A stretch of DNA of 40,011 bases from Candidatus Bathyarchaeia archaeon (GTDB lineage: Archaea > Thermoproteota > Bathyarchaeia > 40CM-2-53-6). The notes beneath the pieces were generated by a model. That model did not search any database and was not told the DNA's origin. It worked only from the letters and a program-made list of their open reading frames with translations. Location: NCBI GenBank assembly GCA_049697135.1, contig JBAVVE010000061.1:1-40011 (forward strand), written 5' to 3'. The translations under genes and the position numbers were made by a program. Below are positions 5,716-40,011 of this stretch, in pieces. The first letter of the stretch is position 1. Every line of letters begins with the position of its first letter.

Positions 5716-5755
5716 GCAAGTCGCTGTCGTTGTTGAAAGGAGCTGAGAAGAAGCA

Positions 5756-6535
5756 ATGATGCCGCTTCTTCTGGTGTCGTTCTTGTTCTTGTCTTCTTTG
5801 AACATGACATGGTTGCCGTTCGTGTTCATTACTGAGGTCTCTCCCGAGTCTCCGATGATCTTTGACATGGTGACGGTGACTTGGCTTGTGCAGACTGATG
5901 TTTCAGTGCCCATAACGGTGGCTCAGTGGGATTTCGGAGACGGCACTGGGGGCGTAGACGCTCAGCAGAACATGACGGGCACGTTCTACATAACGCGGGC
6001 GCATGTCTACGCGGTGCCTGGCGACTATTATGTGCGTGTAGGTGTGGTGGATGCTTTGAATCGGACTGCTCAAGATGTTATAGCGGTCACGGTTCAGCCT
6101 CGTGCAACAGTAATCACTTTCAATGTGAATCCGGTGAATGTGAACTCCAGCTATGACGAGCACTTCACATTTGAGGCGAGTCTTGCGACGGATCAAGGAG
6201 TCACGCTGGTCGGTCAGCCGGTCGCTTTCTGGTACTCTCCCGTGCCTGTGAATCAAACAGCCGATGATATCAAGTGGTACTCGGCTGGAGGAGGACTAAC
6301 GAGCAACGGTGGACGCATCATGACTTTATGGGTTGCACCCTTCGACGGACAATACATATTCAAAGCTACATTCGATGGCGGCGAACTCTATGCTCCAACC
6401 GAAACAATCTACACCATGATTTGTCAAGTCACACCTGAGTTTGCGATGCCATCAGTAGTGCTGATCATCGGGTTTCTCTCAATCGTCTTTTGCAAGAGAA
6501 TAGGGCACCGACCGTCGGCCAGCATACACCTGTAA
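5756..6535 (+). CDS. PKD-domain surface protein with a PEF-CTERM-like C-terminal sorting signal
   Basis: WDFGDGTGG..HVYAVPGDYYVRVGVVDALN is a classic PKD signature. The C-terminus is TPEF + AMPSVVLIIGFLSIVFC + KR (PEF motif, TM helix, basic cluster). Confidence 0.75.
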   Translation: MMPLLLVSFLFLSSLNMTWLPFVFITEVSPESPMIFDMVTVTWLVQTDVSVPITVAQWDFGDGTGGVDAQQNMTGTFYITRAHVYAVPGDYYVRVGVVDALNRTAQDVIAVTVQPRATVITFNVNPVNVNSSYDEHFTFEASLATDQGVTLVGQPVAFWYSPVPVNQTADDIKWYSAGGGLTSNGGRIMTLWVAPFDGQYIFKATFDGGELYAPTETIYTMICQVTPEFAMPSVVLIIGFLSIVFCKRIGHRPSASIHL

Positions 6536-6559
6536 GTTTGGCTAGAAGCCGTAAGGCTT

Positions 6560-6838
6560 ATGGGTAAGTGGTGTGGACTACTGCCCAAGGGAAAGTACAT
6601 GACAGACGGAGTAATCGTCAAGATATTGGACTATCTACGGAAGTCTGCGCCGAAGGACTTGAGCATCGAGGAGCTCGCCCAGGCGACCGGAATCCACCGC
6701 AACACCGTCTCGAAGTATGTCTATGCGCTTGAGAGAGAGGGTAAGATCATGACGGTCCGCACAGTTGGCAATGCCAAGATGTACGTTCGACTTGGGCGGA
6801 GTGCGGCTCATACTTTAGAACCGAAGAGATTGATCTGA
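6560..6838 (+). CDS. winged-helix (MarR/ArsR/TrmB-like) DNA-binding protein
   Basis: ILDYLRKSAPKDLSIEELAQATGIHRNTVSKYVYALEREGKI is a helix-turn-helix plus wing pattern. ATG 6599 is the probable start. Confidence 0.65.
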   Translation: MGKWCGLLPKGKYMTDGVIVKILDYLRKSAPKDLSIEELAQATGIHRNTVSKYVYALEREGKIMTVRTVGNAKMYVRLGRSAAHTLEPKRLI

Positions 6839-7257
6839 ACAAGAAAGAACCCAAGGGCAATCAATGGAAACGCTTCTATTGGGTGCCTCCAGAAACAGAA
6901 AACGCAACTATCGTGGAAGAATGAACTCGTGGTCGTATGCCGAGTTGCAGCGGCAGATTGAGTACAAGGAAGGCCAAATGGTTAGGTTTGCCAGTCACTA
7001 CCGTGCCTTCGCGTGGGACAAGTAGCAAGTGTTCGATATGTGACCACAAAATGAAGGTCGAAGAGAACCGAACGCTACACTGCCCCTCATGCGGGTACAT
7101 GGTAGATCGTGATGTGAACGCCGCCAAGAACATCTTGGAGGCGGGAAGGCTGAGGTTCGGCCTAGTCGAGCGTGCAGGTGAAGCGATGAAACTGTCTTGT
7201 TCAAACGAGCAAGTCGATGCACGCCAGTTACCGAAAGCGGGGCTACCCCTCACTTAA
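6834..7257 (+). pseudogene. tnpB: TnpB (IS200/IS605 OrfB) relic, 5'-truncated and frameshifted
   Basis: Frame 0 reads ..NSWSYAELQRQIEYK. After a 1-nt shift near 6967-6972 it reads KAKWLGLPVTTVPSRGTSSKCSICD..HCPSCGYMVDRDVNAAKNILEAG (zinc ribbon plus RuvC-III). The N-terminal two-thirds is absent. Confidence 0.7.
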
Positions 7258-7392
7258 GTTAACAGAACCATCGTAGGCGGATCTGCGGCAAGGATGGAGG
7301 AAGCGTCCTACCAAACACGAGAGCAAGTAATCTGTTTTGGAGGACAGTTCCAGATCGTGTGATTCATTTTCTCTACTGAGGATGACTAGCTA

Positions 7393-7422
7393 GTGTCAAC
7401 TGATCGCAGGAGGATCTACGGG
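7393..7422 (+). repeat. SSDRRxLYG module, copy A (GTG-initiated)
   Basis: GTG TCA ACT GAT CGC AGG AGG ATC TAC GGG = VSTDRRRIYG. It is preceded by CATTTTCTCTACTGAGG (7365-7381). An in-frame TAG lies 2 codons upstream. Confidence 0.7.
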
Positions 7423-7596
7423 GGCAAAGGCAAGTCTTCGGGCGCGTCGATTGAGTTCTTCAATGTCAGAAGAAGGGAGAAGGTTTCGATTCCTGAATCT
7501 GATGTGGAGATAATCAAGAAGAAGGGCCTACTAATGTACGCTGCCACGGATCCGCAAGACGGCATGAAGTTGAGGAAGATCAAGGGGCGAGCGTAG
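7393..7596 (+). CDS. small basic protein carrying the SSDRRxLYG N-terminal module; possible SH3-like (Cren7/Sul7-type) nucleic-acid binder
   Basis: 67 aa with a GTG start. The body ..KVSIPESDVEIIKKKGLLMYAATDPQDGMKLRKIKG loosely resembles the Cren7 C-terminal hairpin (..GLFKDPETGKYFRHKL). This is pattern-level only. Confidence 0.5.
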   Translation: MSTDRRRIYGGKGKSSGASIEFFNVRRREKVSIPESDVEIIKKKGLLMYAATDPQDGMKLRKIKGRA

Positions 7597-7600
7597 CAGC

Positions 7601-8014
7601 TTGCCTAAGTCGATCGTTGCCGCGCTAATCGGCTGGGTCTACATGCTCGTCGGGGCTTTCAATGTAGTCGCGGCTTTTGTTCCGGAGTTGCAGGTGTACT
7701 CGTTCCAGGCTGCGCAGTATGTTGGTTTCGGCTTGATGTCATTCTTGAACATCTCAATACTTTTCATTGGTGCGTTGATGATTCCTATCGGTTTCGCGGT
7801 TTGGAGGACATGGAAGGGTGGCTGGTGGGTGATGTTCGTTGTTCAGGTCGCCAGTTTGCTCGGCATGACCTTTATTCTGCTTCAAGCTCTTGGGAGTGGT
7901 GTTGCTGTGATTCAGACATTCATTCCGCCGATCGTGAACTTCTTTCTAATTCTGATCCTAATCGGCAAGAAAGGCACTTTCGGTAAGCGGCGAGGCCCTA
8001 TGGGTGAACACTAG
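7601..8014 (+). CDS. integral membrane protein (4 TM)
   Basis: 137 aa, almost entirely hydrophobic helices, with a basic C-terminus. Confidence 0.65.
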   Translation: MPKSIVAALIGWVYMLVGAFNVVAAFVPELQVYSFQAAQYVGFGLMSFLNISILFIGALMIPIGFAVWRTWKGGWWVMFVVQVASLLGMTFILLQALGSGVAVIQTFIPPIVNFFLILILIGKKGTFGKRRGPMGEH

Positions 8015-8040
8015 AACATGAGGGGATGAGGGGCTAAGTA

Positions 8041-8400
8041 TTGGGCTGGAAGGGCGTACTCACCGCCGTCAGTGGTTTGGTTCTGAGTTTCGTTCGTTCG
8101 TTCGTTGGGGTTGGTTCAGACATTTCTGTAGCGTACTCAGCGATTGCGGCGCCACTGAAGACCTTCATGGTTCTGCTTTTGGGTCCGCTTGGGTTTGTGG
8201 TGGGGTGGGTTCCCGCTGACTGGGTCTTGTCCGGACTGTCTTGGATTTTCTTGACGGCATTGATCTTTCTAGCGGTCTCGGCGGCTAAGGGTGTTGTCGG
8301 GTGGATAGTTGCCATCACGCTTGCTGTTGTGATAGTGGTCTTCGTTTTCGGTGGAGCATTTGCGGTTCCAGCGTTTGCGTTTCCACAACTAGGCGGATAA
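8041..8400 (+). CDS. integral membrane protein
   Basis: 119 aa, multi-TM, with a TTG start. Confidence 0.55.
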   Translation: MGWKGVLTAVSGLVLSFVRSFVGVGSDISVAYSAIAAPLKTFMVLLLGPLGFVVGWVPADWVLSGLSWIFLTALIFLAVSAAKGVVGWIVAITLAVVIVVFVFGGAFAVPAFAFPQLGG

Positions 8401-8401
8401 G

Positions 8402-8920
8402 ATGCGGCCCCCCAAGAAACAGCTGTTTGAGCTGAGTGGCCGTGATGTTGCTCTTGCGTTTGCGATAGGTGTCATAGGTTTCGTCTTCAGTACACGGACT
8501 TGGCTTCTGTTCTTGAGTGGTCTCGATGTGGTGTTGGGCTGCTTGATGTACTACATCGTCTTGTATGCCACGTTGCTCGTCTTCAGTAGGATGAAGTTGA
8601 TAGTCTTCGCTCCCAAAATTGGCAATGTGCGCGGAACAGTAGGCCTAGTGTTGTTGACATTCGCGCTGTTCGTGACAGTGAACTGGGAAAACCCATATGT
8701 GCAGTACATCACAACAGGTAGCTTCGGCGGTGCGAGTCCAATCTTGTTTCAAGCGGAAGATGGGGTAGCGTGGCTCTTCGTGACGCAAGTGCTTGGGGTG
8801 CTTGGAATAGTAGACATTGAAGTCGCACGAATCTTCGCGTTCTCCATCGTGCCCGCACTTGTGGCACTTGTGGGTCTATCCCTAATTGGCGGCAGAGTCA
8901 AACTGAATGCATTCGCATGA
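8402..8920 (+). CDS. integral membrane protein
   Basis: 172 aa, 4-5 TM helices, starting 2 nt after the upstream stop. Confidence 0.65.
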   Translation: MRPPKKQLFELSGRDVALAFAIGVIGFVFSTRTWLLFLSGLDVVLGCLMYYIVLYATLLVFSRMKLIVFAPKIGNVRGTVGLVLLTFALFVTVNWENPYVQYITTGSFGGASPILFQAEDGVAWLFVTQVLGVLGIVDIEVARIFAFSIVPALVALVGLSLIGGRVKLNAFA

Positions 8921-10896: not shown

Positions 10897-11003
10897 CCGT
10901 CGAAGACATGATACAGCGTTTTCCGGACCTGAAAACCGAATACCTAGAAATGCTAACCCCGAGAGCCCGGCGTGATCTTCAAAGGTTGGCGCGTCTCGAA
11001 TGA
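10893..11003 (+). CDS. 36-aa coupled micro-ORF
   Basis: MTVEDMIQRFPDLKTEYLEMLTPRARRDLQRLARLE. It has ATGA overlaps at both ends (10893-10896 and 11000-11003). It is below the track cutoff. Confidence 0.4.
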   Translation: MTVEDMIQRFPDLKTEYLEMLTPRARRDLQRLARLE

Positions 11004-12487
11004 TCAACAAGGACCTATACGCGAAACTCTGCGAGACTCGGAGACTGATCGAAACCGCATTTTTCCATGACGCATATTATCTTGTAACGGTCCTCGCAGC
11101 TTTTGTCAGCCGCTCACATATCTGTCTCTTAGGGACACGTGGAACCGGGAAGACTCACTTAGCGAAATGCCTCTTGCGAACCGTAGACCCCTCGATCACC
11201 GCAACGCAACAAGGGTATCTTAGCGCCGATTTCGAGCAAGTTTTGGCAGCGCCGAAAGTCGCCCAGCTGATGCTAGGAATCGAAGAAGTGACTTTTCGGA
11301 AACTTGCCACCGCTCGCCTTAAGATGATCGACGAAATTCAAAGGCTCGGAATGGCCGCACTATCCGCTTTCTTCAGAATACTAGACGACGGAGCAGTTGA
11401 GTATCTAGGCCAGGAGCGCCAAGTGGAAGAACACTTTACGATAGCGACAGCGAACCCAACAGAGAGAGACAGCGACACCCTCAATATCACAATTCCAGAG
11501 CCCCTCTGGGATCGTTTCGCCGCTGTGATCTGGGTCCCCATAGCTCGGCTCAAGGACCAAATGAAGATTAACGGTAACGTCAAGAAAGCGCTCGACGCCA
11601 TACAGCCGATATGGACCGAAAAGGACCTCTTAGCCCTCTGGAATGATGTTAGAGAGAACGTGACGGTCAGTAAGGAACTAGAGTACACTACAACCCTGAT
11701 GCTTCGTATTCCGTCGATCTGTATCAAGGGACAAGGGTTAGACGGTTCGAGCCTTGAACCTGAAAAGAAAAGAGCAAAGTGCGCAGAGTGTAACCAAAAC
11801 TATCTCTGTTCAAAAGTTCTCACACCCCCCTCGTTACGCTTGAAACTTGCATATCTCGAAATGTCGAAAGGGTTCGCCTATGTGGACGGACGGGACAGCG
11901 TCAACATGAAAGACCTTGAAGACGCTTTCCCAGTGGTTTTTTGGAAGCGCATAGTCTTCATGGACGAGGACGAGATAACGGACAGGCTCACAGCGCTCCG
12001 GGCTTTCTTCAAACTACTGACCAAGGAAATGCACGAGGCACAAGAAGCGGTGGAACTTGCCTATGAACTGAAACAGAAATACACAGCTGCGAAAATGCAG
12101 GAGCTAGAGACAGCAGCGAAGGCGAAAGTTTGGCTTATTGAGGCAGTAGATGACGTGAAAAGTCACCAAGAACACCTTAGAGCCCAGCTGAAAACGAGAC
12201 ACGCACAAGCGAAACAGAAGAATGACTCAGAGGAATTAAGCAAGATTAGCGACCTAGCCAGCGAAGTATTACCCCCGCAAGACGCTAAAGCCTTTCATCA
12301 CAACGAACCCCAGACGATCACCCTAACCGCTCAGACAGTCGCAGGACTCGCAGCGGTAGACCTTGAACTCTTCAAGCGTGCAAAAGCCGCATTTGACGCC
12401 AAACAGACAACCATGACCCTAACCGACGAAGAGGCCCGGCGAGTACGAGCAAAGCGCACGAAACCAAGCAAACAAAAAGCCAAGTGA
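11000..12487 (+). CDS. MoxR-like AAA+ ATPase with a C-terminal coiled-coil extension
   Basis: Walker A is LLGTRGTGKTHLAK, Walker B is LKMIDEIQRL, and sensor-1 is FTIATANPTE. The order and spacing are typical of MoxR/AAA_3-AAA_5. About 170 aa of the C-terminus is Lys/Glu/Ala-rich. Confidence 0.85.
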   Translation: MINKDLYAKLCETRRLIETAFFHDAYYLVTVLAAFVSRSHICLLGTRGTGKTHLAKCLLRTVDPSITATQQGYLSADFEQVLAAPKVAQLMLGIEEVTFRKLATARLKMIDEIQRLGMAALSAFFRILDDGAVEYLGQERQVEEHFTIATANPTERDSDTLNITIPEPLWDRFAAVIWVPIARLKDQMKINGNVKKALDAIQPIWTEKDLLALWNDVRENVTVSKELEYTTTLMLRIPSICIKGQGLDGSSLEPEKKRAKCAECNQNYLCSKVLTPPSLRLKLAYLEMSKGFAYVDGRDSVNMKDLEDAFPVVFWKRIVFMDEDEITDRLTALRAFFKLLTKEMHEAQEAVELAYELKQKYTAAKMQELETAAKAKVWLIEAVDDVKSHQEHLRAQLKTRHAQAKQKNDSEELSKISDLASEVLPPQDAKAFHHNEPQTITLTAQTVAGLAAVDLELFKRAKAAFDAKQTTMTLTDEEARRVRAKRTKPSKQKAK

Positions 12488-21847: not shown

Positions 21848-22123
21848 GTGGTGACGCAGACAATGAGCGAAGATAAGAAGATCCCGGTAATCTTAACCGT
21901 CAAGGAGCGAGCGTTACAGGTGAAAGTGCCGGTTACGCGGACAAGCGATTTGGATGACTTGGAGGGGGAGCCGCAGCCGGAAGCGAAGGACATCGGCAGA
22001 ATCTTCTACGAGAACGGTCAAGCCTGGACTGTAACTACAGGTGCAGATTCCGAGCTCGTATGGAAGCCTTTGACTTTAACCGAAGTCGGAGATATGGTAC
22101 GGGGGAAACCAAGCCAATGCTGA
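21848..22123 (+). CDS. hypothetical mosaic protein
   Basis: 91 aa. The N-terminal part shares ERALQVKVP (27 nt) with ORF 20077. The middle shares EAKDIGRIFYENGQA with the partial ORF at the window end. Confidence 0.5.
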   Translation: MVTQTMSEDKKIPVILTVKERALQVKVPVTRTSDLDDLEGEPQPEAKDIGRIFYENGQAWTVTTGADSELVWKPLTLTEVGDMVRGKPSQC

Positions 22124-24337: not shown

Positions 24338-24487
24338 GGTTGAATGGGACTCAAAGAGGGCGGCTTGGATGAGTTTCTTTAGCAAACTTGCGGAGCATCT
24401 AGGTGAGACATCAGCTGGGAATCTGAGGGCGAATCTAAGCGAGCCCTCAGTAGTTTTAAAGGAGCACTTTCAGAGGCAGAGCAAGAA

Positions 24488-25732
24488 ATGAATCGAACCA
24501 ACACGATTCTACTTACGCCAACCCATGAACAAGAGCAGCAGCTCCGCAGCCTCGCGGAAGCATCAGCGCGACTATGGAACATGGCAAACTATGAGCGACG
24601 ACAAGCCCTCTTCAAAAGCCAGCGAAACCTCACCTACGCGCAACAATGCAAACGCCTCAAAGACGCGGACGCATTCAAGCAGCTCGGCACATGCAAAGCC
24701 CAAGCCGTCCTCATGAAACTACGAGAAGCATGGGGAAGCTACCATACATTGAAGAGGCTGCAAAGGAACGGCCAACTGCCACCCCACATTAAGCGCGTTT
24801 CTCCACCACGCTACATGAAAGACCGCCAGACGCGAAGGCTTACGGCAAACACAATCTATGTCCGCAACGACGGATACAGGCAAGAGGACGATACGCTGAT
24901 CCTCTCGAAGAGCCTCGGTGTTCCCTTCAAGGCAGGCGACCTCTGGCTTGGAAAGCAAGGTAGACTTGAACTCCACTACGACTCGCTACGCAAGAGATGG
25001 TGCGGTCATATTCCAGTGAAGGTTAAGTGGCCCCGTAAGGGTAAACCACATCATTCGACGCGGAAACGTGCGTCCATCGACCTTGGAATATGCAACCTAG
25101 CCACATGCGTAATCGAAGATAGCGGCAAAGCCTACGTGTACTCTGGACGCGCCGTATTGAGCGACTGGCGGTACTGGACGAAACTTATCGCCGCAGTCGA
25201 AAGCGAACTGAAGAAGACGAATGGGCGGGACAGTTCGAAGCGTCTCAGCAGACTCTATCGGACACGCAGACGACGGCTGGACCATGCAGTGAAAGCGATG
25301 CTTCGAGACCTCTACGAGCAGCTAGAAAACGAGTGCGTCACCGATCTCGTCGTAGGCGACTTGAAGCATATCCGAGACAACGCGAACCACGGCAAAGTCG
25401 GGAACCAGAAGCTGCACAATTTCTGGCCGTTCGCGCAGATCCGCCAACGAATCCATGAACTCAGCGAAGAATCCGGCATACGGGTACGGTTCAAGTCGGA
25501 GCGGGGCACATCGAAACATTGCTCTCTATGTGGAGAGAAGCACAAGAACGGACGAGTGAAACGTGGACTCTACAAATGCGCCAAAACGGGCACGACACTC
25601 AATGCGGATGTGAACGGCGCAACCAACATCCTCTATGGGCGAAAAGTAGCCGCAGTTAGCGGTAGCAGGCCACTGGCATGGCCTATGCTTCTGAAGTGGA
25701 ACTCTCAGAAATGGGAAGTGTCCGCAGCATGA
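24488..25732 (+). CDS. tnpB: TnpB / IS605 OrfB RNA-guided endonuclease family protein
   Basis: 414 aa. The N-terminus is LLTPTHEQEQQLRSLAEASARLWN. RuvC-I is RASIDLGICNLA. LVVGDLKHI follows. The zinc ribbon is TSKHCSLCGEK..YKC. RuvC-III is NADVNGATNIL. Confidence 0.9.
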   Translation: MNRTNTILLTPTHEQEQQLRSLAEASARLWNMANYERRQALFKSQRNLTYAQQCKRLKDADAFKQLGTCKAQAVLMKLREAWGSYHTLKRLQRNGQLPPHIKRVSPPRYMKDRQTRRLTANTIYVRNDGYRQEDDTLILSKSLGVPFKAGDLWLGKQGRLELHYDSLRKRWCGHIPVKVKWPRKGKPHHSTRKRASIDLGICNLATCVIEDSGKAYVYSGRAVLSDWRYWTKLIAAVESELKKTNGRDSSKRLSRLYRTRRRRLDHAVKAMLRDLYEQLENECVTDLVVGDLKHIRDNANHGKVGNQKLHNFWPFAQIRQRIHELSEESGIRVRFKSERGTSKHCSLCGEKHKNGRVKRGLYKCAKTGTTLNADVNGATNILYGRKVAAVSGSRPLAWPMLLKWNSQKWEVSAA

Positions 25733-25772
25733 GAAGCATGAATCTCCCGACTTCAGTTGCGGAGAGTGTCAA
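25640..25772 (+). ncRNA. putative omega-RNA (reRNA) scaffold of the TnpB element; terminal hairpin is repeat copy 2 (25740-25772)
   Basis: By analogy with TnpB systems, the guide RNA overlaps the tnpB 3' end and stops at the right end. GAATCTCCCGACTTCAGTTGCGGAGAGTGTCAA folds as UCUCC(C)GAC-uuca-GUUG(C)GGAGA. The 5' limit is a guess. Confidence 0.35.
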
Positions 25773-27212: not shown

Positions 27213-27677
27213 ATGGGTAAGAGACAGAAGTCGCCAATGGCTCCGCTGGAAGCCCAGTTTGCGATGGGTACGATGCCGTTTCTCATCATTTTGGCCCTTC
27301 TCACGTTTTGTCTGGCTGCTCTAGTGAACGGTCTCGGTATAAGTGAGCTTCTAACCCGTGTGAGCATTATGGCGATGCTAGTCGGTGGTGTTGGTTTGGC
27401 TTGGTGGCGTATCGCTTTCAAGAGTCCGCAGTGGCGGATGGGTACGCAAGCATCAATGGTTCTGGTCGTGTTAGCTTTCATTTCATTCTTCATTATCGCG
27501 CCGAAAATTGAGGGAATGATACCTTCCTCGCTTCGGTTCCAACTTGTGCCGTTGCTCGCTCTCACCGGACAAACCAGCCAAGTCGCAGGTATGTCCCTCA
27601 GCATCGTCGGAATCGTCGCCTTGCTTCTCGTCGGCCTAATAGTGGCCTTCTTCAAGAGACCGCATCGTAAGTGGTAG
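27213..27677 (+). CDS. integral membrane protein (4 TM)
   Basis: 154 aa. CATTTTCTCTATTGATGG box at 27192-27209. It is clearly hydrophobic, unlike the antisense track ORF 27200-27799. Confidence 0.65.
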   Translation: MGKRQKSPMAPLEAQFAMGTMPFLIILALLTFCLAALVNGLGISELLTRVSIMAMLVGGVGLAWWRIAFKSPQWRMGTQASMVLVVLAFISFFIIAPKIEGMIPSSLRFQLVPLLALTGQTSQVAGMSLSIVGIVALLLVGLIVAFFKRPHRKW

Positions 27678-27687
27678 GAGCGAGCCT

Positions 27688-27762
27688 TTGTCCTCTGACC
27701 GGCGCCGCCTCTACGATGGGGAAAGGGGCGCATCATACTTTCAGGCGTCTCTGGAGCATTAA
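27688..27762 (+). repeat. SSDRRxLYG module, copy B: a 24-codon stub ending in TAA, in frame with the TnpB-like ORF
   Basis: TTG TCC TCT GAC CGG CGC CGC CTC TAC GAT = LSSDRRRLYD. TAA lies at 27760-27762. 27799 minus 27688 is 111, a multiple of 3. Confidence 0.6.
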
Positions 27763-27798
27763 AGGCAGAACCGCATAGGTTCCAGGAGAGGAACAGCA

Positions 27799-29043
27799 TT
27801 GGTGGCAGTTGTCGCGGTTCCCGGCTTCGTTGAAGGCATCAACGATGATGTGGAACAGCTTATGCGTAAGTTTGGGAACTGTCGACGCCGCGCGTACGTG
27901 ATGAAGCAGAAGGGCAGGGATAGGCTGGAGATACTAAAGCAGCTGCACCGCGAAACTGAGCTGCCAGTACGCTACGTCTACACGGCCTACGACACAATCA
28001 AGGCCCTACCCTCACATGTCACATTCGGCGGTCTCAGACTTCAGAGACTCCGAGAAAGCGGCCAGGTCCCCAAAGAGGAGTACCATGCCCGTAGGAACCG
28101 TATGCTTGCTTGCAGAGGCGACCGCAGCCGCGAAGGCAACCTCTGTCTCAGAATCAAAGACAACAAGCTCCGCATCTGCATCGGCCCGCATCAGTGGATT
28201 CATGTGCCGCTCTCAGTTCCTGAGAAGTATCGTAAGCGATACCAAGCACTTCTGGACGGCTCGAAACCCTACACCATCATACTGCGACGACGACTTGATG
28301 GACGTGGCTACGACGCCAAGATCATAATCCCTGTTGAATCGCCCACTACTCCGGAACCGAAACGCGTCATGGCTTTGGACATAAACTCAGGCCACGTGGA
28401 CTTCGCAGTCGCCGAGAAGACAAGCCTGAAGCCTGTAGTGTTTGGCAAAGTGAACTGCTCCGAACTCGTCAACGCTGGACACGGCAAGAAAGAGATCTTA
28501 GCTCAGAAGCTTGTGAACAAGGTTGGAAACATCGCTAAGCATTACGGCGCTGAGGTTGTGGCGGGCAAACTGAGAACTCTTCACTGCAAGGGCCATAGAC
28601 ACTTAAACCGTAAAACTCAAGGCATGAACCAATACCGCATGCGACAGATTCTACGATACAAGCTTCCACTACGCGGCATACGATACCGCGACATGTCCGA
28701 AGCATACACCACACAAGTAGGCAAGAAGCTCTCTAAGCCTCTCGGGGTCGACGTGCATAAGGCAGCCGCGTACGCGTTCTCTGTTAAGGTGATCGACTAT
28801 CCGTCGTTCACATTCCTCCGCAGTGTCCATGCAAATGAAGACGATGGAAGCCTCAGCATGTGGCTAAACGGAGGAAGCGAGCCAACAGCTCCACACCAGG
28901 CCAACCGTAACGGCCTGATGTGCAATGACTCACATGCGCTCGCATGTGAGGAGGCTACGCCCAACCTTCAAGCAACCGATTTTCCAATGCGGCGATTTCA
29001 ATCGTTTGGGTGTCAACTTCGCGCGTCATCATTTTCCTTCTGA
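27799..29043 (+). CDS. TnpB-like protein lacking the zinc ribbon (possibly nuclease-impaired)
   Basis: 414 aa. RuvC-I is VMALDINSGHVDFAV. The ..GAEVVAGKLRTL segment has no acidic residue where the intact copy has VVGDL. SEAYTTQVGKKLSKPLGVDVHKAAAYAF joins the TSQ-like motif directly to a RuvC-III-like motif, with no CxxC pairs. Confidence 0.7.
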   Translation: MVAVVAVPGFVEGINDDVEQLMRKFGNCRRRAYVMKQKGRDRLEILKQLHRETELPVRYVYTAYDTIKALPSHVTFGGLRLQRLRESGQVPKEEYHARRNRMLACRGDRSREGNLCLRIKDNKLRICIGPHQWIHVPLSVPEKYRKRYQALLDGSKPYTIILRRRLDGRGYDAKIIIPVESPTTPEPKRVMALDINSGHVDFAVAEKTSLKPVVFGKVNCSELVNAGHGKKEILAQKLVNKVGNIAKHYGAEVVAGKLRTLHCKGHRHLNRKTQGMNQYRMRQILRYKLPLRGIRYRDMSEAYTTQVGKKLSKPLGVDVHKAAAYAFSVKVIDYPSFTFLRSVHANEDDGSLSMWLNGGSEPTAPHQANRNGLMCNDSHALACEEATPNLQATDFPMRRFQSFGCQLRASSFSF

Positions 29044-29082
29044 GGCTCAGCCTTGTCTTCTGATCGGCGGAATCTCTACGGC
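29027..29082 (+). repeat. SSDRRxLYG module, copy C, with conserved leader
   Basis: CATCATTTTCCTTCTGAGGCTCAGCC TTG TCT TCT GAT CGG CGG AAT CTC TAC GGC. 42 of the first 43 nt are identical to copy E. Confidence 0.75.
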
Positions 29083-31041
29083 AGAGGACAGCGCACTCAC
29101 GCGCGTCTTCGAGAGCCAGTTGGCAAGGCAGCGCTGAGGTTCAAGCAGCCGCGTCGTATGCCCTTCACGTTGAGGAACATCAAGGCTTTGCCTGAACGGC
29201 GACCCGGCGTTTACTACTTCTACGACAAGCATGGAAATCGAATCTACACAGGATCAGCTGCCGAACGCGGAGTCAAGGCCCGACTAGAGGACACATTCTA
29301 CTCGGTGGACGGTAATGAGACAATTCTTGTCAAGCAAAGCATAGAGACGCAAACCAAGATCGCGCGACTTAGAATCAGTGAATTTGTTGATTCATTCTAC
29401 AAAGAGAATGAAGACAATGCCCAACCCATACCCCTCGCTCGTCCAGCATGGTGTCTATCGGCAGCATGGATGTCACCAGGCGCATCAGATCTCTTGCAGC
29501 TAGGCTGGCGTAGAATCCAGGCTGTCTTCAGACACAAACTCGAACCGGGTGAGAAACTTCTACGTTTCTCAACGGGGACAGGTCGTTCAGTTGCTGTTAC
29601 GAAGGGGCACAGTCTGATGATCTTCAAACAAGGGCGAATTGTCTCCTTTCCAGCCAAAGAACTGAAGCGAGAAGACATGCTGATTATCCCGCGTGTTATT
29701 CCCGCACTCACTTCTGTCCCCTCCAAGACATTGCCGTTCACTCTCATCACCGGCAGACAAAAAGTCAAGATCCATCAGAGGAATGTTCCCGTAGATGACA
29801 AGTTGATGCGGTTGCTAGGCTTTTTCGTCTCTGACGGCTCCTACATGTCTAGCGTACAATCAGGACGCTTCCAAGGATTGAACTTTGATTTCGGGCTTCA
29901 AGAAGAACATCTTTTCAACCAACTGAATGAAGCATGTCTGCATCTCTTTGGAGCAGCGCCTAAGAAGAAATATCCCGAAGATAAGAAAGCAATTAGAGGG
30001 ATACTCAACTCTGCTTTCGCACAAGCCTTCTTAGAAGAAGGTCTGCATGTCTCGCGTGGAGCGCATAACAAGTCGGTCCCAGATGTTGTTTGGAACGCGC
30101 CAGCTGACTACCAAAGGATATTCATGCAAGGGCTGTGGGACGGTGATCGCGGAGCGACTGTCAGTCCTCAACTCGCATCCGACATGCTATACTTGACTTC
30201 AATGTCACTTGACTGCTCCGGCTCTATAGACATCCGCCATGAAAAAGCACGCTTTAGAGGTCTGGGTTTTCCATATCGACCCTGCACGATGTATCATCTC
30301 GTTGTGCCACCGCCAAACCGAGCAGAACCCTATAGGCGACGGTTCGAATTGGGTCCGCCTATTATCGAGGTCTTGAAAGTCTTCGATGAGCTAGTCCCAT
30401 TCAGAGGCACGGGACTACACAAGGGACAAGACGATTGGGTGAAGCATTGGCGAAATGGGCCTCGAAGACACGCAACGGAGAGGGACATTAGGAACTTCTG
30501 CATGACGCGTTCGCGCCGTCTGCTCTATGAGCGGCTTTCCGCATTTGGGAATGGCCGTCAGCGATGGTGGACAACGAAGGAACTCACTGGGGCATGGGGA
30601 ATGGCTCGTCGAGAACAAGTATCGGACTATTTGAGAAAGAGCCCAATTTTGGAGACAAACATGCTCCAAGTAAGAGGCAGAGCAACAAAAGAGTATCAAT
30701 TAGACGATAGTACCTGCGACATAATGGAACGAATCCGATTTACAATGAGAGCATGTTCGTCAAACCGTGGAGTGGATTTTGACATCATCGAGAAGATTAC
30801 CGAAGTTGAGCCATCAAGCTCTTACGTGTATGATCTAATTGTTCCAGAAACAGAATGCTTCATTGCAGGCTTTGGGGGGATCCTCGTACACAATTCACGT
30901 GGTGACTATGCCACGATCCCGAAGAAACGTGAACTTCGCAAGAAAATCGCTAAGGTCGACATTCAATGGGGCAAGAACGTCTACGATAACCGCGAGATCG
31001 AACTGAAACAGAAACAAGGGCTTGTTGGAAACACTCGTTAG
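29053..31041 (+). CDS. GIY-YIG nuclease-domain protein interrupted by an intein; carries the SSDRRxLYG N-terminal module
   Basis: The extein has PGVYYFYDKHGNRIYTGSA (GIY..YIG) and, after the intein, ..NREIELKQKQGLVGN (Glu/Asn helix). The exteins are 133 + 48 aa. TTG start. Confidence 0.85.
   Translation: MSSDRRNLYGRGQRTHARLREPVGKAALRFKQPRRMPFTLRNIKALPERRPGVYYFYDKHGNRIYTGSAAERGVKARLEDTFYSVDGNETILVKQSIETQTKIARLRISEFVDSFYKENEDNAQPIPLARPAWCLSAAWMSPGASDLLQLGWRRIQAVFRHKLEPGEKLLRFSTGTGRSVAVTKGHSLMIFKQGRIVSFPAKELKREDMLIIPRVIPALTSVPSKTLPFTLITGRQKVKIHQRNVPVDDKLMRLLGFFVSDGSYMSSVQSGRFQGLNFDFGLQEEHLFNQLNEACLHLFGAAPKKKYPEDKKAIRGILNSAFAQAFLEEGLHVSRGAHNKSVPDVVWNAPADYQRIFMQGLWDGDRGATVSPQLASDMLYLTSMSLDCSGSIDIRHEKARFRGLGFPYRPCTMYHLVVPPPNRAEPYRRRFELGPPIIEVLKVFDELVPFRGTGLHKGQDDWVKHWRNGPRRHATERDIRNFCMTRSRRLLYERLSAFGNGRQRWWTTKELTGAWGMARREQVSDYLRKSPILETNMLQVRGRATKEYQLDDSTCDIMERIRFTMRACSSNRGVDFDIIEKITEVEPSSSYVYDLIVPETECFIAGFGGILVHNSRGDYATIPKKRELRKKIAKVDIQWGKNVYDNREIELKQKQGLVGNTR
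29452..30894 (+). mobile_element. 481-aa intein with a LAGLIDADG homing-endonuclease domain
   Basis: It begins with Cys (AW|CLSAAW; TGT 29452-29454). Block B is VTKGHSL. The LAGLIDADG motifs are LLGFFVSDGSY and FMQGLWDGDRGA. The C-terminus is YVYDLIVPETECFIAGFGGILVHN|S (AAT 30892-30894, +1 Ser). Confidence 0.8.
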
Positions 31042-31077
31042 AGTGCTTACACCTGAAAGAGCCCTACATTTTCTCTA

Positions 31078-31563
31078 GTGAGGAAATCGGTTTTGTCTTC
31101 TGACCGGCGCAGCCTATACGGTGGACGCAAGCGTAGAGGTATGCGGCATGTTGTAGTTGCGGTGCCTCGTCCACGTCCTGGGCAACATCACCTGAAAGGG
31201 ATCGTTGTGGAGGCGCCGCCTGAATTGAGGCGTTTCAAGGAAGCAGGGCTTGACAATCCGAAAACACTGGACCCTGCTAAGTTGAGGGGAGGAGAAACAA
31301 CTGCCTACACCTACCGTGGATACAATCCGAAGAAGTATAACCCAAAGGATCCGGGGCGTACAGGTGTAAGGGACATAAAGACTGTGCCCTCCTCACAGAT
31401 ACGAGAGTTGCAGAAGGAAGTGAGAGGCGACTTAGGTGGTGCCTTGAGTGCAAGCGCGGAATCCAGCCATGAGCCTCGTAGATACGTTCAACGGACCGTC
31501 AAAACGCCTAAAGGGATACGTCACCGCCCGGCGATAAGTGTCCGCAAATTCCTCGAATTATAG
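31078..31563 (+). CDS. basic hypothetical protein carrying the SSDRRxLYG module
   Basis: 161 aa with a GTG 31078 or TTG 31093 start. The ..GGRKRRGMRHVVVAVPRPRPG.. segment resembles the VAVVAVPGF N-terminus of the TnpB-like ORF. Confidence 0.5.
   Translation: MRKSVLSSDRRSLYGGRKRRGMRHVVVAVPRPRPGQHHLKGIVVEAPPELRRFKEAGLDNPKTLDPAKLRGGETTAYTYRGYNPKKYNPKDPGRTGVRDIKTVPSSQIRELQKEVRGDLGGALSASAESSHEPRRYVQRTVKTPKGIRHRPAISVRKFLEL
31093..31122 (+). repeat. SSDRRxLYG module, copy D
   Basis: TTG TCT TCT GAC CGG CGC AGC CTA TAC GGT = LSSDRRSLYG. CATTTTCTCTAGTGAGG box at 31067-31083. Confidence 0.7.
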
Positions 31564-31594
31564 GAATGAATTGTGTGGCTGGCCAATCTCCACA

Positions 31595-31650
31595 CATCAT
31601 TTTCCTTCTGAGGGTCAGCCTTGTCTTCTGATCGGCGCAAGCTCTACGGT
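31595..31650 (+). repeat. SSDRRxLYG module, copy E, with conserved leader
   Basis: CATCATTTTCCTTCTGAGGGTCAGCC TTG TCT TCT GAT CGG CGC AAG CTC TAC GGT. Confidence 0.75.
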
Positions 31651-31941
31651 AACGGAGGCTCTGGCAGAGGATTTCTTGGCCTTAGAAAAAAGACAGCCAA
31701 ATCCTCTATGCCGCAGCAGTCGCGTGTACCGACGAACATTATGATTGTCGTAGTGTCTCCGCCGGTAGCCAATCCCAAAGCAGTGCCTACAGGTGTAAGA
31801 GGACAGAAGCCAAGCCTCGAAATGGCGCAAGAGAAGACGACTGAAGAAACATCGGTCAACCATAAGGGCGATGAGCCCCAGCCCCAGCCCCAGGATGAGC
31901 AACGACGCAAAGGCATAGGTAGGTTTCTGAGGGCCGACTAA
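31621..31941 (+). CDS. hypothetical protein carrying the SSDRRxLYG module
   Basis: 106 aa with a TTG start, a Gly/Arg tail (GNGGSGRGFLGLRKK) and an acidic, Gln-rich C-terminus. Confidence 0.5.
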   Translation: MSSDRRKLYGNGGSGRGFLGLRKKTAKSSMPQQSRVPTNIMIVVVSPPVANPKAVPTGVRGQKPSLEMAQEKTTEETSVNHKGDEPQPQPQDEQRRKGIGRFLRAD

Positions 31942-34001
31942 TGCGAGGACCGAGCAAAACGAGTGTGCTCAAGACTGTTCTTATTCTAGTCGTTCTTACT
32001 TTGAGTGTTCTTTCAGTAGCGCCGTTTGTGACTGAGTATCCAACTCAAGTCTATGCAACTGTACCCGCTAACGATTTTGGAATTGAATTGAGCCCGGCCA
32101 GTTTGTCGTTTTCACAGGGAGTAACTAGCACAAAGACATTTTCCGTATCTATGACCAATAACCATGCTACTGGTTGTACCGGCGGTGCTTGCCCGAATGA
32201 GCTGCTTGGGCTATTCACTCTTGAGACCGCGTATGTCTCTTTAGCAGTATCTTCTGACTCGCCACAAGTAACGGCAGGATTCATTGTGAACTTCTTTCCG
32301 AGCTATTTCGAAATTCCTGGTGGCCAAAGCAAGACTGTTCAAGGCTCGGTTAATGTAGCAAGTTCAGTTGCTACAGGTTCATACCATTTCACAATCATAG
32401 CAAGTGTGAGCTGGCCGAGTCTTACAGGACCAACAAAGTATCAGGCAGGTCTCAGCGTTGGCGTGAATATTCCACCGCCGCTTCCACCTACATCGCTGCC
32501 AAGCCAAGTGAATGTCGGTCAGACTTGGAGTGAGATGACGATCCATTTCAAGGACGGCTCACAACAGACTTTGAAGTCGTCGCAATCTGTTGTAGCGAAA
32601 CGGATAGCCCTGTACCAGTTGGCGAGATTGCCTCAGAGCATTGACTTCTACGTGAAGGCAGTCAATGTGCCGCAGTTGCCGCGACCCAGTTATGTGAGAT
32701 GGGATGGCACCACCCATACGGCAGCCGGATTCATTCTGAAAGTCACCACTAACGTCCGGATCCTCGTAAATGGCATGATCGTCTACACAAGCCCAAGCAA
32801 CGGCGTGAATATGTACTGGTCTCAAGAGGACTACGGTCTAATTCCTGAACTAGCTGGGTTCAAATCGTTTGGGTGGGGGCAACAGGCAGTTCAGTTCAGC
32901 ATGACAGGCTGGAATGCAGATAATTACTTGTCAAAGAGCCAGTCAACCACATTCGAATACTACTACACGCAGGACTGGTCTGTGTACGGTGTTTGGACTG
33001 AAGTTCATCTCGCTATTGGCGCACCCAGCTCAACGGTATGCGGAGGCTTAACTGACTGTGTCGATCGGATGAAACCTGTTTGGAGTGCGCATATCAATCA
33101 AGAGCCAATCACGACGACTGTACCCGCAGAAGAGGTCACAGTAGGTAAGCCGTTCTTCAAGGTCGGTGTCTCTCCGCTCTCCGCCACCATCGGCGTAAGC
33201 AGTGGGACAGTTCGAACCTTCCAAGTCCAAGCGCAAGGATTCTACGGGTTCAACTCAGAGATCACATTCTCCACGCAGAACTTGCCGACGGGAATCAGTG
33301 GTTCATGGGCGAAGCTAAAGGATACTCCTACGCAAGCGAACGGTTGGATTGCAAGTACGCAACTTACGATAACCACGTCTTCAGGAGCTAAACTGGGCGC
33401 ATACAACTTCGACATCGTGGGCTCCGGAGGAGGACTCACAAGTTCGGTCACAGTGAGTTTGACAGTGGAGCAGACAGCAGGACCGGATGAAACGGAAGGA
33501 AAGATCACGGCCTACGTCCATGTTAGTGTCGATCAAAGTGCGTATCAGCCGGGTGCACGGATCAAGGTCACAGGCTCAGTCAGTGATTACAACGGAAATG
33601 GGCTGCCGAATGTTCCTGTGAGTTTAACCTCGACCTTCAACTTCACTCAAGCCGTCACGACCGATTCTCACGGAACCTTCCAAGCCTCAACCGATGCGCC
33701 GACGACGGAGGGAAGATATTCTGTGACAGCCAGCTTCGCAGGTGACACATCAAAGTATGCAGGAGCCGAAGACACCGCGACATTCCAAGTAAGCGCCGAG
33801 GCCGGATCATCTCTGTGCAGCATACCACTGCTAGGCGCGATCCTTTGCGGAAACTGGCAGGGCCTACTTGACTGGCTATCAGCGAACTGGATCCTAGTCG
33901 TCATCGTCGTCGTAGGCCTGTATGTGCTCTATCGCGTCATTCGCTACTTCACCAGGCCGAAGTATCAGCAGTTTCGGCGGCAGTATGGCTCTTATCGTTG
34001 A
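31941..34001 (+). CDS. large cell-surface or envelope protein (Ig-like/CARDB-type repeats, C-terminal TM anchor)
   Basis: 686 aa with a signal/anchor (VLKTVLILVVLTLSVLSVAPF). The beta-rich repeats include FKVGVSPLSATIGVSSGTVRTFQV.. and a CarboxypepD_reg-like segment (VTTDSHGTFQASTDAP). The C-terminal TM is ILVVIVVVGLYVLY plus a basic tail. Confidence 0.7.
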   Translation: MRGPSKTSVLKTVLILVVLTLSVLSVAPFVTEYPTQVYATVPANDFGIELSPASLSFSQGVTSTKTFSVSMTNNHATGCTGGACPNELLGLFTLETAYVSLAVSSDSPQVTAGFIVNFFPSYFEIPGGQSKTVQGSVNVASSVATGSYHFTIIASVSWPSLTGPTKYQAGLSVGVNIPPPLPPTSLPSQVNVGQTWSEMTIHFKDGSQQTLKSSQSVVAKRIALYQLARLPQSIDFYVKAVNVPQLPRPSYVRWDGTTHTAAGFILKVTTNVRILVNGMIVYTSPSNGVNMYWSQEDYGLIPELAGFKSFGWGQQAVQFSMTGWNADNYLSKSQSTTFEYYYTQDWSVYGVWTEVHLAIGAPSSTVCGGLTDCVDRMKPVWSAHINQEPITTTVPAEEVTVGKPFFKVGVSPLSATIGVSSGTVRTFQVQAQGFYGFNSEITFSTQNLPTGISGSWAKLKDTPTQANGWIASTQLTITTSSGAKLGAYNFDIVGSGGGLTSSVTVSLTVEQTAGPDETEGKITAYVHVSVDQSAYQPGARIKVTGSVSDYNGNGLPNVPVSLTSTFNFTQAVTTDSHGTFQASTDAPTTEGRYSVTASFAGDTSKYAGAEDTATFQVSAEAGSSLCSIPLLGAILCGNWQGLLDWLSANWILVVIVVVGLYVLYRVIRYFTRPKYQQFRRQYGSYR

Positions 34002-34044: not shown

Positions 34045-34524
34045 ATGCGTATTCCTTCAGGGAAAAGGATCTTCGCAGACGTCTTCTTCACAGGGCTATG
34101 GATTGTATTCTTGCCACTGATGCCGTTGCTAGGTAGGGTTTGGTGGGGAATTGGGTTCCTGCCGATCTATCTTCAGAGCATTGTTCTTGACATTTACATC
34201 ATTCCACGTCTACTTGTAGCTGTCTTTGTGCTTGGCATTCTAGGCAACTTCTCTTACCTCTGGTTCCGCAAGATCAACTGGTTCCTAGACTTCCTGTTTA
34301 CAGGTGGACTAGGATTCGTCGTCTTCGTCGCCTTCACTGTGAGACTCATCTACCTGCTACCCTTCGTCATTAACTTGGGATTCGTTGATTGGACAGACGC
34401 AGTTTCAACCTTCATCGGACTCATCATCCTCGGCGCAATCCTCAACGTCACACACAGACTCATCGATAGCCAGCTAGACAAGCGCCTCGCACAGGGCTTC
34501 CAGGGCATGCAGAGCCAAATCTGA
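34045..34524 (+). CDS. integral membrane protein
   Basis: 159 aa with 4-5 TM helices. TATTTTCATGTTGAGG box at 34003-34018. Confidence 0.6.
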   Translation: MRIPSGKRIFADVFFTGLWIVFLPLMPLLGRVWWGIGFLPIYLQSIVLDIYIIPRLLVAVFVLGILGNFSYLWFRKINWFLDFLFTGGLGFVVFVAFTVRLIYLLPFVINLGFVDWTDAVSTFIGLIILGAILNVTHRLIDSQLDKRLAQGFQGMQSQI

Positions 34525-36070: not shown

Positions 36071-37024
36071 TTGTTTCCCGCAACCACGGACATTCTAACG
36101 AACTTCATCAGCTTCGGGTTCTACGCGGACTTTGCATGGAATGGAGAAGAACGTTTCGAGCATATTCTGGCACGTTTGGAGGATGTTCTGGATCAGGTCG
36201 TGAATGGTTGGCAGGAGGGCAGACAGAGAACTGGTACGGGTCGTGGCCGGAAGCATAAGCCGCGAGAGAAGACGCATGTTGCGGACATTGAGCTTTTTCA
36301 AGCGTTGTCGTTGCTGTTCTTCTTCATGTATTTTGGTTTGAATACGGTAAATATTGCGGCGCAGTTCAACCGTTTTGTCTTCTACGGTATGCTTCTCTTA
36401 GGCTCGTTGGTGTCGCTGAATACGACGATGATTCGGCATGGCTTACCGATGCCAGGTAAGAATGTTCCAGATTGGGATGAGAACTTTGAGTGGTGGCATC
36501 TCGGCATCATCATGGCTAGTGTAAGCGCAATCTACGCCCTCAACACCCTTTTTCTGGGGCCACTATCAACCGCTTTCCCGGAGCCGATGTCAGGCACACT
36601 TGCTCCCATAGCGTTTGCGTTGATTCCTCAGGTGTGGGCGAACCTGATTCAGCAGATATTATGGCAAACTTTCGTAGTCGCATTCGCGGAAGAAACATTG
36701 AAGATAGCTGTGATTTTGCCGTTCTCGCGGCGCTGGCAGCTTGAGTTCATCATGGCACCAGTAGTGATAGGAATCTGGGCAGAGGGCCACAGCGTACTCG
36801 CCTACGGAGGCGCATTTTGGCCTCTGGTCGCAGCATTCGCAGGAGGCATAATCATCTACGCAATCATCCGCATCACACGAAACCTGCTCACAGGGGTCAT
36901 CGCCCACGCCGGCATAAATTTGATTTCTCTGGTACCAATGATGAGTAATTTGTTACCAACTGTGAGAGTTGCTACCGCAGGAGTGCTCATCAGCTACCTC
37001 TCTCCTCTCCTTGTGTCCCCTTAA
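36071..37024 (+). CDS. CPBP (CAAX protease / Abi, PF02517-like) intramembrane metalloprotease candidate
   Basis: 317 aa, multi-TM. It has FAEETLKIAV (EE motif), WAEGHSVLAY and VIAHAGINLI (HxxxN). The first motif lacks the usual Arg. Confidence 0.5.
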   Translation: MFPATTDILTNFISFGFYADFAWNGEERFEHILARLEDVLDQVVNGWQEGRQRTGTGRGRKHKPREKTHVADIELFQALSLLFFFMYFGLNTVNIAAQFNRFVFYGMLLLGSLVSLNTTMIRHGLPMPGKNVPDWDENFEWWHLGIIMASVSAIYALNTLFLGPLSTAFPEPMSGTLAPIAFALIPQVWANLIQQILWQTFVVAFAEETLKIAVILPFSRRWQLEFIMAPVVIGIWAEGHSVLAYGGAFWPLVAAFAGGIIIYAIIRITRNLLTGVIAHAGINLISLVPMMSNLLPTVRVATAGVLISYLSPLLVSP

Positions 37025-39952: not shown

Positions 39953-40011
39953 GTGGAACCGGAGCCTCAGGCGAAGGATATTGGCAGAATCTTCTACGAG
40001 AACGGTCAAGC
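39953..40011 (+). CDS. 5' part of a paralogue of ORF 21848 (runs off the window)
   Basis: GTG 39953 then EPEPQAKDIGRIFYENGQ. 39971-40011 matches 21983-22023 at 39 of 41 nt. Confidence 0.45.
   Translation, partial: MEPEPQAKDIGRIFYENGQ

Follow-up and report, generated by a model that had tools for sequence, protein, structure and literature searches.

How does one short peptide come to stand at the start of five otherwise dissimilar genes, and what might it do there? The question is raised by a 40,011-nucleotide (nt) stretch of DNA assigned to a Candidatus Bathyarchaeia archaeon (assembly GCA_049697135.1, contig JBAVVE010000061.1), which is a whole metagenome contig and is called the window here. 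The window belongs to a rare, uncultivated mobile element, a virus or a plasmid, of a probably archaeal host. At five places a TTG or GTG start codon is followed by the nine-residue consensus S-(S/T)-D-R-R-x-(L/I)-Y-(G), which we call the head; a basic arm follows it and then, in four of the five copies, a protein body. The head is conserved as a peptide, and recombination has carried it from one body or leader to another. We propose, tentatively, that it is a docking tag shared by the proteins that carry it.

7393–7596, + strand: gene A, 67 residues, isoelectric point (pI) 10.4; head GTG-STDRRRIYGG (7393–7422), Gly/Lys arm, predicted five-strand beta barrel (residues 18–67)
27688–27720, + strand: orphan head of copy B (11 codons, TTG-SSDRRRLYDG), collinear up to 27720 with the uninterrupted head that the GIY-YIG gene has in related contigs L031 and L028
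29053–31041, + strand: gene C; head TTG-SSDRRNLYG (29053–29082), basic arm, GIY-YIG-like nuclease with an intein inside
31093–31563, + strand: gene D, 156 residues, pI 11.0, head TTG-SSDRRSLYGG
31621–31941, + strand: gene E, 106 residues, pI 10.5, head TTG-SSDRRKLYG; stop and the following gene's ATG overlap in TAATG

The head is conserved as a peptide

The five copies (at 7393, 27688, 29053, 31093 and 31621), listed with their codons in a preliminary description of the sequence, stand far above chance. A position-specific scoring matrix for the peptide, run over all six frames, gives exactly five matches of 32–36 bits; the next best in the window scores 13.5 bits and the maximum on 20 shuffles is 17.4 bits. 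Because the matrix was built from the copies themselves this result is partly circular, though the gap is large. A degenerate DNA pattern matches six times in the window against 0.78 expected, a count reached in 0 of 100 shuffles; its sixth match, at 3552, lies out of frame within the open reading frame (ORF) 3292–4182, shares no flanks with the others and is treated as chance. Residue 7 is free across heads (R, N, S, K, H or M), residue 10 is mostly Gly, with D, A, S and I also occurring, and the Gly/Arg/Lys-rich stretch noted earlier behind the copies is borne out by 8–10 Lys/Arg and 3–6 Gly in the first 30 residues of the head proteins.

Five related metagenome contigs supply 16 further copies, giving 21 on six contigs (L037 included), besides three decayed fragments. 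Relatives L027–L029 came from a search of metagenomes with a leader-plus-head DNA pattern; L030, L031 and L037 were added through protein look-ups. The head has no match to any described family, as the preliminary description had supposed, and nothing relevant was found in the literature on 'SSDRR' or on SSO2105. Codon-degenerate head patterns give no match in GTDB genomes and three chance matches in IMG/VR, all with in-frame stops, and an exact 17-mer scan of IMG/VR gives 21 matches at chance level, all in unrelated genes. A profile of the five heads, run against 1.84 billion representative proteins, returns A, one D ortholog, one low-complexity false match and one diverged A ortholog; since E itself is not recovered, this search is blind to head-only matches and does not imply absence elsewhere.

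Variation among the heads is structured by codon. In 18 unique heads, compared at the seven fixed codons (S, S, D, R, R, L and Y), position 1 varies in four of the seven, position 2 in none and position 3 in all. At position 1, Arg alternates between CGN and AGR, a synonymous change, and the other exchanges are Ser/Thr and Leu/Ile. Arg5 is spelled CGG, CGC, CGA, CGT or AGA, and Arg6 CGC, CGG, AGG or AGA. Ser3 is TCT in most heads; A has ACT (Thr), and the diverged A ortholog on L037 has AGT (Ser), a two-step route between the serine codon families. Altogether some 14 synonymous alternatives stand against three conservative replacements, and the arm behind the head varies freely while the nine head residues do not. 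At the RNA level, single-sequence folds of the heads have z-scores of −0.02 to −0.92 and differ between copies, RNAalifold of the head alignment yields −0.64 kcal/mol and no covarying pair, and Rfam gives no match. The head peptide, not its nucleotides, is under purifying selection, as had been supposed from the five copies and as is now seen in 21. A candidate C/D-box small RNA, considered for the CUGA motifs, was rejected, no C box standing in the right place and Rfam giving no match.

Translation probably starts at the head, behind exchangeable leaders

All 21 copies start with TTG or GTG, the first base exchanging T and G and never giving ATG, and every copy has a GAGG or GGAG Shine-Dalgarno site 7–10 nt upstream. 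The in-frame stops reported 2–4 codons upstream of A, C and E are there, and in heads of the A, C/E and B types an upstream stop, or the absence of another start, forces initiation at the head codon. For D, the downstream ATG at 31141 that the preliminary description had held out as an alternative start is CTG (Leu) in all orthologs; in C, the linker from the head to Met36 differs from that of L031 by six synonymous changes and one non-synonymous change. These sequence comparisons support initiation at the head TTG or GTG over a downstream ATG. The length of 161 residues first given for D counts from a GTG at 31078 that overlaps the Shine-Dalgarno site; from TTG 31093 the protein has 156. That no copy uses ATG holds for all 21 but is less remarkable than it had seemed, because non-ATG starts are common in the element: a crude Shine-Dalgarno-based caller assigns TTG, apparently an unusually frequent start here, to about 18 of 49 genes, often with a good GGAG or GAGG site, and a non-ATG start to roughly half.

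The common reading frame, earlier read as a chain, is real in the window (all copies lie in frame 1, A included), but the frames differ in the relatives (0, 0, 2, 1 in L031; 0, 1, 0, 1 in L029; 2, 2 in L028), so that the window's shared frame is a coincidence. Stop read-through chaining the ORFs was likewise rejected, since C is separated from D by two stops and the relatives differ in frame.

The sequences upstream of the heads are as follows.

7365–7392, + strand: leader A, CATTTTCTCT box and GAGGA Shine-Dalgarno-like site; in-frame TAG two codons before the start
29027–29052, + strand: leader C, CATCATTTTCCTTCTGAGGCTCAGCC; 25 of 26 nt as in the leader of E
31067–31092, + strand: leader D, CATTTTCTCTAGTGAGGAAATCGGTT
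31595–31620, + strand: leader E
2743, 7365, 27192, 29030, 31067, 31598 and 37149, also 36050 and 34528: CATTTTCY boxes, eight on the + strand and one on the − strand

The CATTTTCY box lies 20–26 nt before start codons. As it stands before head-less genes too (27213, 37171 and 2777), it is a general expression signal of the element, and it may be promoter-proximal or belong to the 5′ untranslated region. B-type heads (copy B and gene C of L028 and L031) have no CATTTTC box and start 8 nt past the stop of the upstream gene; since they are instead coupled to that membrane-protein gene, the head is separable from its leader. Leaders are moreover shuffled with respect to bodies: a type-III leader stands before E in L027 and before D in L029, and the type-I leader of E stands before C in the window. 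The earlier count of 42 identical nt in 43 shared by C and E, from CATCATTTTCC to GATCGGCG, is confirmed by alignment. A further head-bearing cassette, X, seen in relatives, is missing from the window and from L027, and the CATTTTC box marks the junction. In type-II leaders the box can pair with the Shine-Dalgarno site, in a fold that is not significant.

Unrelated, basic bodies follow the head

The bodies of A, C, D and E, and of X, which occurs in relatives only, are mutually non-homologous. With the shuffled leaders, this bears out the earlier view of the module as a cassette-like add-on to unrelated bodies. All head proteins are strongly basic (pI 10.4–11.7), and most bodies are probably DNA-binding or DNA-associated. 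Their own relatives are few: among 5.8 billion proteins, D has five and C four.

Gene A yields the sole usable model. AlphaFold2 predicts its barrel with a predicted local distance difference test score (pLDDT) of about 91, residues 4–6 and 8–14 falling below 50, which suggests that the head is a disordered or flexible tag. The best fold matches of the barrel in the PDB are Sac7d (probability 0.95, E 0.13) and Cren7 (probability 0.90), with a template modelling score up to 0.60 and a root mean square deviation of 2.4 Å; sequence comparison of A with Sac7d and Cren7 is not significant. The model is thus suggestive of a Sac7d/Cren7-like barrel. The diverged A ortholog on L037 (P0132) retains the head.

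For gene C, the GIY-YIG domain named in the preliminary description stays below the Pfam cut-off: the intein-free ortholog matches the profile at 18.5 bits (cut-off 22.6; E 0.0025) over positions 2–73 of 78. The intein of the window copy has 531 residues (29302–30894) and two LAGLIDADG motifs (LLGFFVSDGS and FMQGLWDGDRG), begins with Ser and ends VHN↓S, the arrow marking its boundary; the orthologs in L028, L029 and L031, of 126–132 residues, have no intein. No confident fold is obtained for D (AlphaFold2 pLDDT 31), and E and X have no family match. As the predicted folds of A and C differ, the head was probably spread by fusion and not retained by divergence.

An insertion sequence interrupts the array

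The ORF between copies B and C had been called TnpB-like and placed at the centre of the family. It belongs to an insertion sequence (IS).

27721–28970, + strand: IS of the SSO2105_N (PF27229) TnpB-like family; left end GAAAGGGGCGCATCATACTTTCAGG; ORF 27799–29043

The label needs refinement: the TNB domain alone is matched, scoring 18.7 bits where the cut-off is 26.3, and precomputed Pfam annotation places the protein in PF27229, SSO2105_N. This family has more than 150 members; in its alignment D194, E252 and D318 are kept as candidate RuvC residues, and it has no CxxC pairs or zinc finger. The spacing first described, a TAA at 27760 twelve codons before TTG 27799 and TGA plus three codons between this ORF and C, is correct. 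Aligned with L031, the window is identical at 114 of 131 nt up to 27720, the eleventh head codon, and then switches sharply to the IS left end at 27721. Copy B is an orphan head because the IS inserted after this codon. The TAA that closes the stub of B is positioned as reported but lies in the conserved IS left end, and so belongs to the inserted sequence.

Five other copies of the family (in L022, L023, L026, L035 and L036) define its ends, GAARG..GCCGCATCATACTTTCAGG on the left and ..CCACATCCTACAGGTGAAAGTATGATGCAGGGTTCC on the right, and the head motif is absent near all five. In the window, family homology runs only to 28970, so that the element has lost its right end and its last ~24 codons. 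The TnpB-like gene is a decaying, 3′-truncated insertion sequence and no component of the head system or of a guide-RNA system that includes the head genes. The sequence of events would be that the IS landed after codon 11 of one head, orphaned B and then lost its 3′ end. Gene C of the window has a complete head, the leader of E and a linker resembling that of C in L029; either this head arose anew once the IS had inserted, or B derives from a lost neighbouring cassette. If one gene did regain a complete head after the insertion, the tag would seem to be needed. A dead-TnpB repressor of the TldR type, guided to the heads, was considered and rejected, because the ORF is a 3′-truncated member of a mobile family with its D/E/D residues and heads exist without it.

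Head DNA as an apparent TnpB target

A family organised around TnpB finds no support in the cleanest relatives, L031 and L028, which have the array without TnpB. The link to TnpB is real but different, in that head DNA appears to be a recurrent insertion target of TnpB ISs. Two traces of this kind lie upstream of gene A.

6937–7257, + strand: remnant of a canonical zinc-finger TnpB, last 95 residues; complete in L037 (87% identity, E 1e-58)
7270–7293, + strand: decayed head fragment ATCGTAGGCGGATCTGCGGCAAGG, reading DRRRI-C-GK, shortly after the TnpB remnant; recognised by eye against head A

On L037 the order is an orphan leader with head, a TnpB, a head remnant and a new head; this TnpB is unrelated to the canonical family at 24488 of the window. 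The latter family, which also includes the second TnpB of L029 and a copy in L022, ends in ..GAGAGTCAA. In L029 the 16 nt behind its right end, which is where the guide of such elements is encoded (bioRxiv 10.1101/2023.03.14.532601), are CGACGCAGCCTATACG, codons 5–10 of a head, and agree with window D at 15 of 16 positions. The IS of the window copy (about 24436–25772; OrfB_IS605 and zinc-finger TNB domains) looks truncated at its left end compared with L029 and L022, and its right end, ...GAGAGTGTCAA, lies 1 nt before the TTG start of a gene of 344–385 residues. Its empty site, seen in L031, is TTCTGAC↓ATTGGAGACC (the arrow marks the junction), which resembles the TCTTCTGAC↓CGG of the head; across the candidate landing junction head DNA reads TCTTCTGAC↓CGGCGCAGCCTATACG.

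Head DNA of the form TCTTCTGAY↓CGN thus resembles the apparent landing motif of canonical TnpB ISs, which abut heads at three other places; the comparison covers three junctions and one empty site. Heads are repeatedly hit probably because S-S-D is spelled TCT TCT GAY. Other copies of these ISs have unrelated flanks. The locus offers a clean natural case of a short repeated coding motif becoming a hotspot of IS landing, leader swapping and cassette gain or loss.

Two further observations concern these regions. Immediately behind a TnpB right end in L029 (5086–5125), a 16-nt piece of head DNA runs, via an ATACG microhomology, into 26 nt duplicated from the 3′ end of gene D; a type-III leader and an intact D come next, the whole being the footprint of an illegitimate recombination. 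A conserved ORF of 60–64 residues (L029 2366–2548, − strand in L037 at 7912–8106 and + strand in L029) stands divergently beside two unrelated canonical TnpB genes and is possibly an accessory gene of those ISs.

The element and its relatives

Almost all genes of the window lie on the + strand. Recognised products comprise an AAA ATPase (11000–12487) and the enzymes integrase, DNA ligase and methyltransferase; further genes encode the canonical TnpB (24488–25732), PKD and Ig-like surface proteins and an Rce1/CPBP-like protease (36071–37024), and the rest are ORFans. Pfam and PHROG scans of about 45 window ORFs detect no capsid, portal, terminase or suitable protease, and neither a tRNA nor an Rfam family is found in the window. 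Relatives of the element are absent from GTDB genomes and IMG/VR and occur in only a few metagenomes. An archaeal host is likely because the IS family carried by the window is also present in Bathyarchaeia and Hadesarchaea assemblies. The window shows no terminal repeat that would indicate a circular genome; its last 57 nt (39955–40011) match 21967–22023 at 50 of 57 positions and are the start of a paralog of ORF 21848–22123, cut off by the contig end.

Head genes are situated within operons of membrane and surface proteins, two of which frame the main array.

27213–27677, + strand: four-transmembrane-segment membrane protein gene; in relatives, 8 nt separate its stop from the TTG that opens the first head gene
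31941–34001, + strand: 686-residue surface protein gene with N-terminal and C-terminal transmembrane segments and Ig-like domains; syntenic after E in L028 and L031

The undisturbed layout is that of L031, in which four consecutive head-bearing genes, C (126 residues, intein-free), X (103 residues), D and E, run from the four-segment membrane protein to a surface protein of 694 residues. This order is syntenic, in L028 too, where no TnpB adjoins the heads. In place of cassette X and the D head, L028 has an opposite-strand gene for a Cys-rich, secreted-looking protein of 299 residues; its D is left head-less and starts at an internal ATG (features at 5314–5673, − strand, and 5697–6596, + strand). 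Gene A is followed by three genes for proteins with several transmembrane segments. Small proteins of this kind (three to six predicted segments; 7601–8920, 27213–27677 and 34045–34524) border both head-gene loci; they match no family and might serve a non-tailed archaeal virus as envelope or capsid proteins.

A docking tag and its alternatives

We read each repeat as the 5′ end of a gene cassette, one of a small family whose members comprise, in order, a CATTTTCY box, a GAGG or GGAG Shine-Dalgarno site, a TTG or GTG start, the head peptide, a flexible Gly/Arg/Lys arm and a basic body. The head would be a short linear motif that docks all carrier proteins to one common partner and thereby recruits them, as their most likely fate, into the nucleoprotein or particle of the element; the tag might be removed at L-Y-G-(G). 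Repeated leaders and heads also serve as recombination sites for leader swaps and for the gain or loss of cassettes. In the anatomical and evolutionary part of this account we have high confidence. The function as a docking or processing tag is put forward tentatively, at rather less than an even chance, and the account as a whole we judge slightly better than even.

Several points weigh against it. The scanned window ORFs include no partner, particle protein or protease for the tag that we could identify, and 'particle' is an assumption, as no capsid hallmark was found in the window. A cleavage motif of the phage T4 type, L/I-x-E, is absent after the head in every copy, and a fixed cleavage site is weakened by residue 10 not always being Gly. 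Some type-II and type-III leaders hold an in-frame start five codons upstream (ATG before D in L027, GTG before D in the window), so the head may not always be the extreme N terminus. Although Sac7d/Cren7-type chains make up 17 of the top 20 PDB matches of A in Foldseek, their E values are weak (0.13–0.76). Finally, the six head-bearing contigs come from one narrow lineage and many copies are orthologous, so that independent observations are few.

An alternative is that head and arm together form an arginine-rich nucleic-acid-binding arm that tethers the proteins, with neither partner nor processing. The Lys/Arg and Gly content of the first 30 residues and the high pI would suit such an arm, as would two bodies that are likely DNA binders or cutters, the strongly basic character of the others and the low model confidence of the head region in A. 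An arm of this kind needs composition, however, and not an invariant S-S-D-R-R-x-L-Y; it is the arm that varies and the nine residues that do not, and the fixed acidic Asp and the Tyr in all copies point to a specific recognition surface. We consider this reading unlikely.

The head could also hold two jobs, as a peptide that addresses a changing set of probably DNA-binding proteins and a nuclease to the nucleoprotein or particle and, through 17–25 nt of its DNA, as a TnpB landing motif and guide target, where RNA-guided cutting would drive the conversion, swapping, loss and gain of cassettes. We rate this combination decidedly unlikely; if true, such an addressing signal would possibly be unprecedented for archaeal mobile elements.

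Action in cis during translation, as a nascent peptide that tunes weak TTG or GTG starts and has no role in the finished protein, would account for the start codons of all 21 copies, with T/G exchanges at the first base and never ATG, and for the two or three consecutive Arg codons after the start. But TTG is a very common start in the element, regulatory nascent peptides described so far are usually encoded as short ORFs of their own and do not form N termini common to five proteins, and C apparently regained a complete head after the insertion, not just any start. This makes a purely cis-acting head improbable.

The heads might, again, be relics of old paralogs with bodies that have diverged past recognition, the N terminus surviving by chance and without a special role. 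D and E are loosely alike after the arm (hVVVAVPRP and IMIVVVSPP), and the family is tiny. Against descent of this kind stand the different apparent folds of A (beta barrel) and C (GIY-YIG), which imply that at least some heads were acquired by fusion, the strong purifying selection on a head whose neighbouring arm drifts, and the demonstrated exchange of leaders and heads; we hold it to be very improbable.

The preliminary description had itself allowed for a DNA or RNA element tied to TnpB whose open frame is incidental, such as a recombination site, an IS end or the scaffold or guide of an omega-RNA. The TnpB-like ORF flanked by B and C, the C/E identity that takes in non-coding leader and the head fragments abutting canonical TnpB right ends, where the guide is encoded, could all be so explained. 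The last are expected, however, whenever an IS lands in a head; the variation is structured by codon, with switches of Arg and Ser codon families; the five other IS copies have conserved ends without the motif; four heads in L031 and two in L028 stand without TnpB; and there is no stable or covarying RNA structure and no Rfam match. Such an element has become highly improbable. A Tat (twin-arginine translocation) or double-glycine-leader-type secretion signal, to which the resemblance of D-R-R-x-L-Y to S/T-R-R-x-F-L-K, the G-G ending of many heads, the neighbouring membrane-protein genes and the Rce1/CPBP-like protease might point, is dismissed as extremely improbable, since the longest uncharged run after RR is 5–8 residues (A, C, X, D and E) against at least 13 for a Tat h-region, the head is only ~11 residues long, no C39-peptidase transporter is seen among the ORFs scanned, and at least two cargos look DNA-directed (nuclease-like and chromatin-like).

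Comparison with known systems

Like Tat signal peptides, the head has an N-terminal R-R-x-hydrophobic-hydrophobic sequence after Ser/Thr, its RR is invariant and D-R-R-x-L-Y fits only in part; unlike them, it lacks the hydrophobic h-region and is followed by a highly charged arm. With IS200/IS605-type TnpB elements it shares the junction in L029, where a right end is followed by 16 nt of head DNA, and the empty and filled sites suggest a landing motif of the TGAC/TGAT type; the head would here be the target and not a part of the element. The predicted body of A is like Sac7d/Sso7d and Cren7 in being a basic, five-strand SH3-like barrel of about 50 residues with a D-P-x-x-G turn, whereas Sac7d and Cren7 are without the S-S-D-R-R-x-L-Y head.

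The adenovirus core precursors pVII and pre-mu, which are basic and condense DNA, begin with a short propeptide that is cut at (M/I/L)-x-G-G↓x or (M/I/L)-x-G-x↓G. Most heads would fit this pattern (L-Y-G-G↓R, I-Y-G-G↓K and L-Y-G-N↓G), a resemblance of pattern alone; in several heads residue 10 is instead D, A, S or I, and a clan-CE protease is absent from the ORFs scanned.

The closest analogue of the head would be the capsid-targeting sequence of phage T4. It is the sole conserved part of the diverse, fast-evolving internal proteins IPI, IPII and IPIII, and its cargo can be swapped (PMC3012670). The head resembles it in being a short N-terminal peptide and the only shared part of diverse small basic proteins (21 copies and at least five body types). 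The two have no sequence similarity, and the T4 tag is cut at L/I-x-E by the prohead protease, a site absent here; nor do the Pfam and PHROG scans show an HK97-type capsid, a scaffold or a prohead protease, and the host is probably archaeal. T4 internal proteins travel with the DNA; for the head system a comparable function is what we infer. The principle of a shared N-terminal tag on swappable cargo is already known from phages, but a docking or loading tag of this kind would, to our knowledge, be the first such portable signal described for an archaeal mobile element. It would provide a natural handle for choosing the proteins that travel with the DNA and could in principle, like the T4 tag, be used to load foreign cargo.

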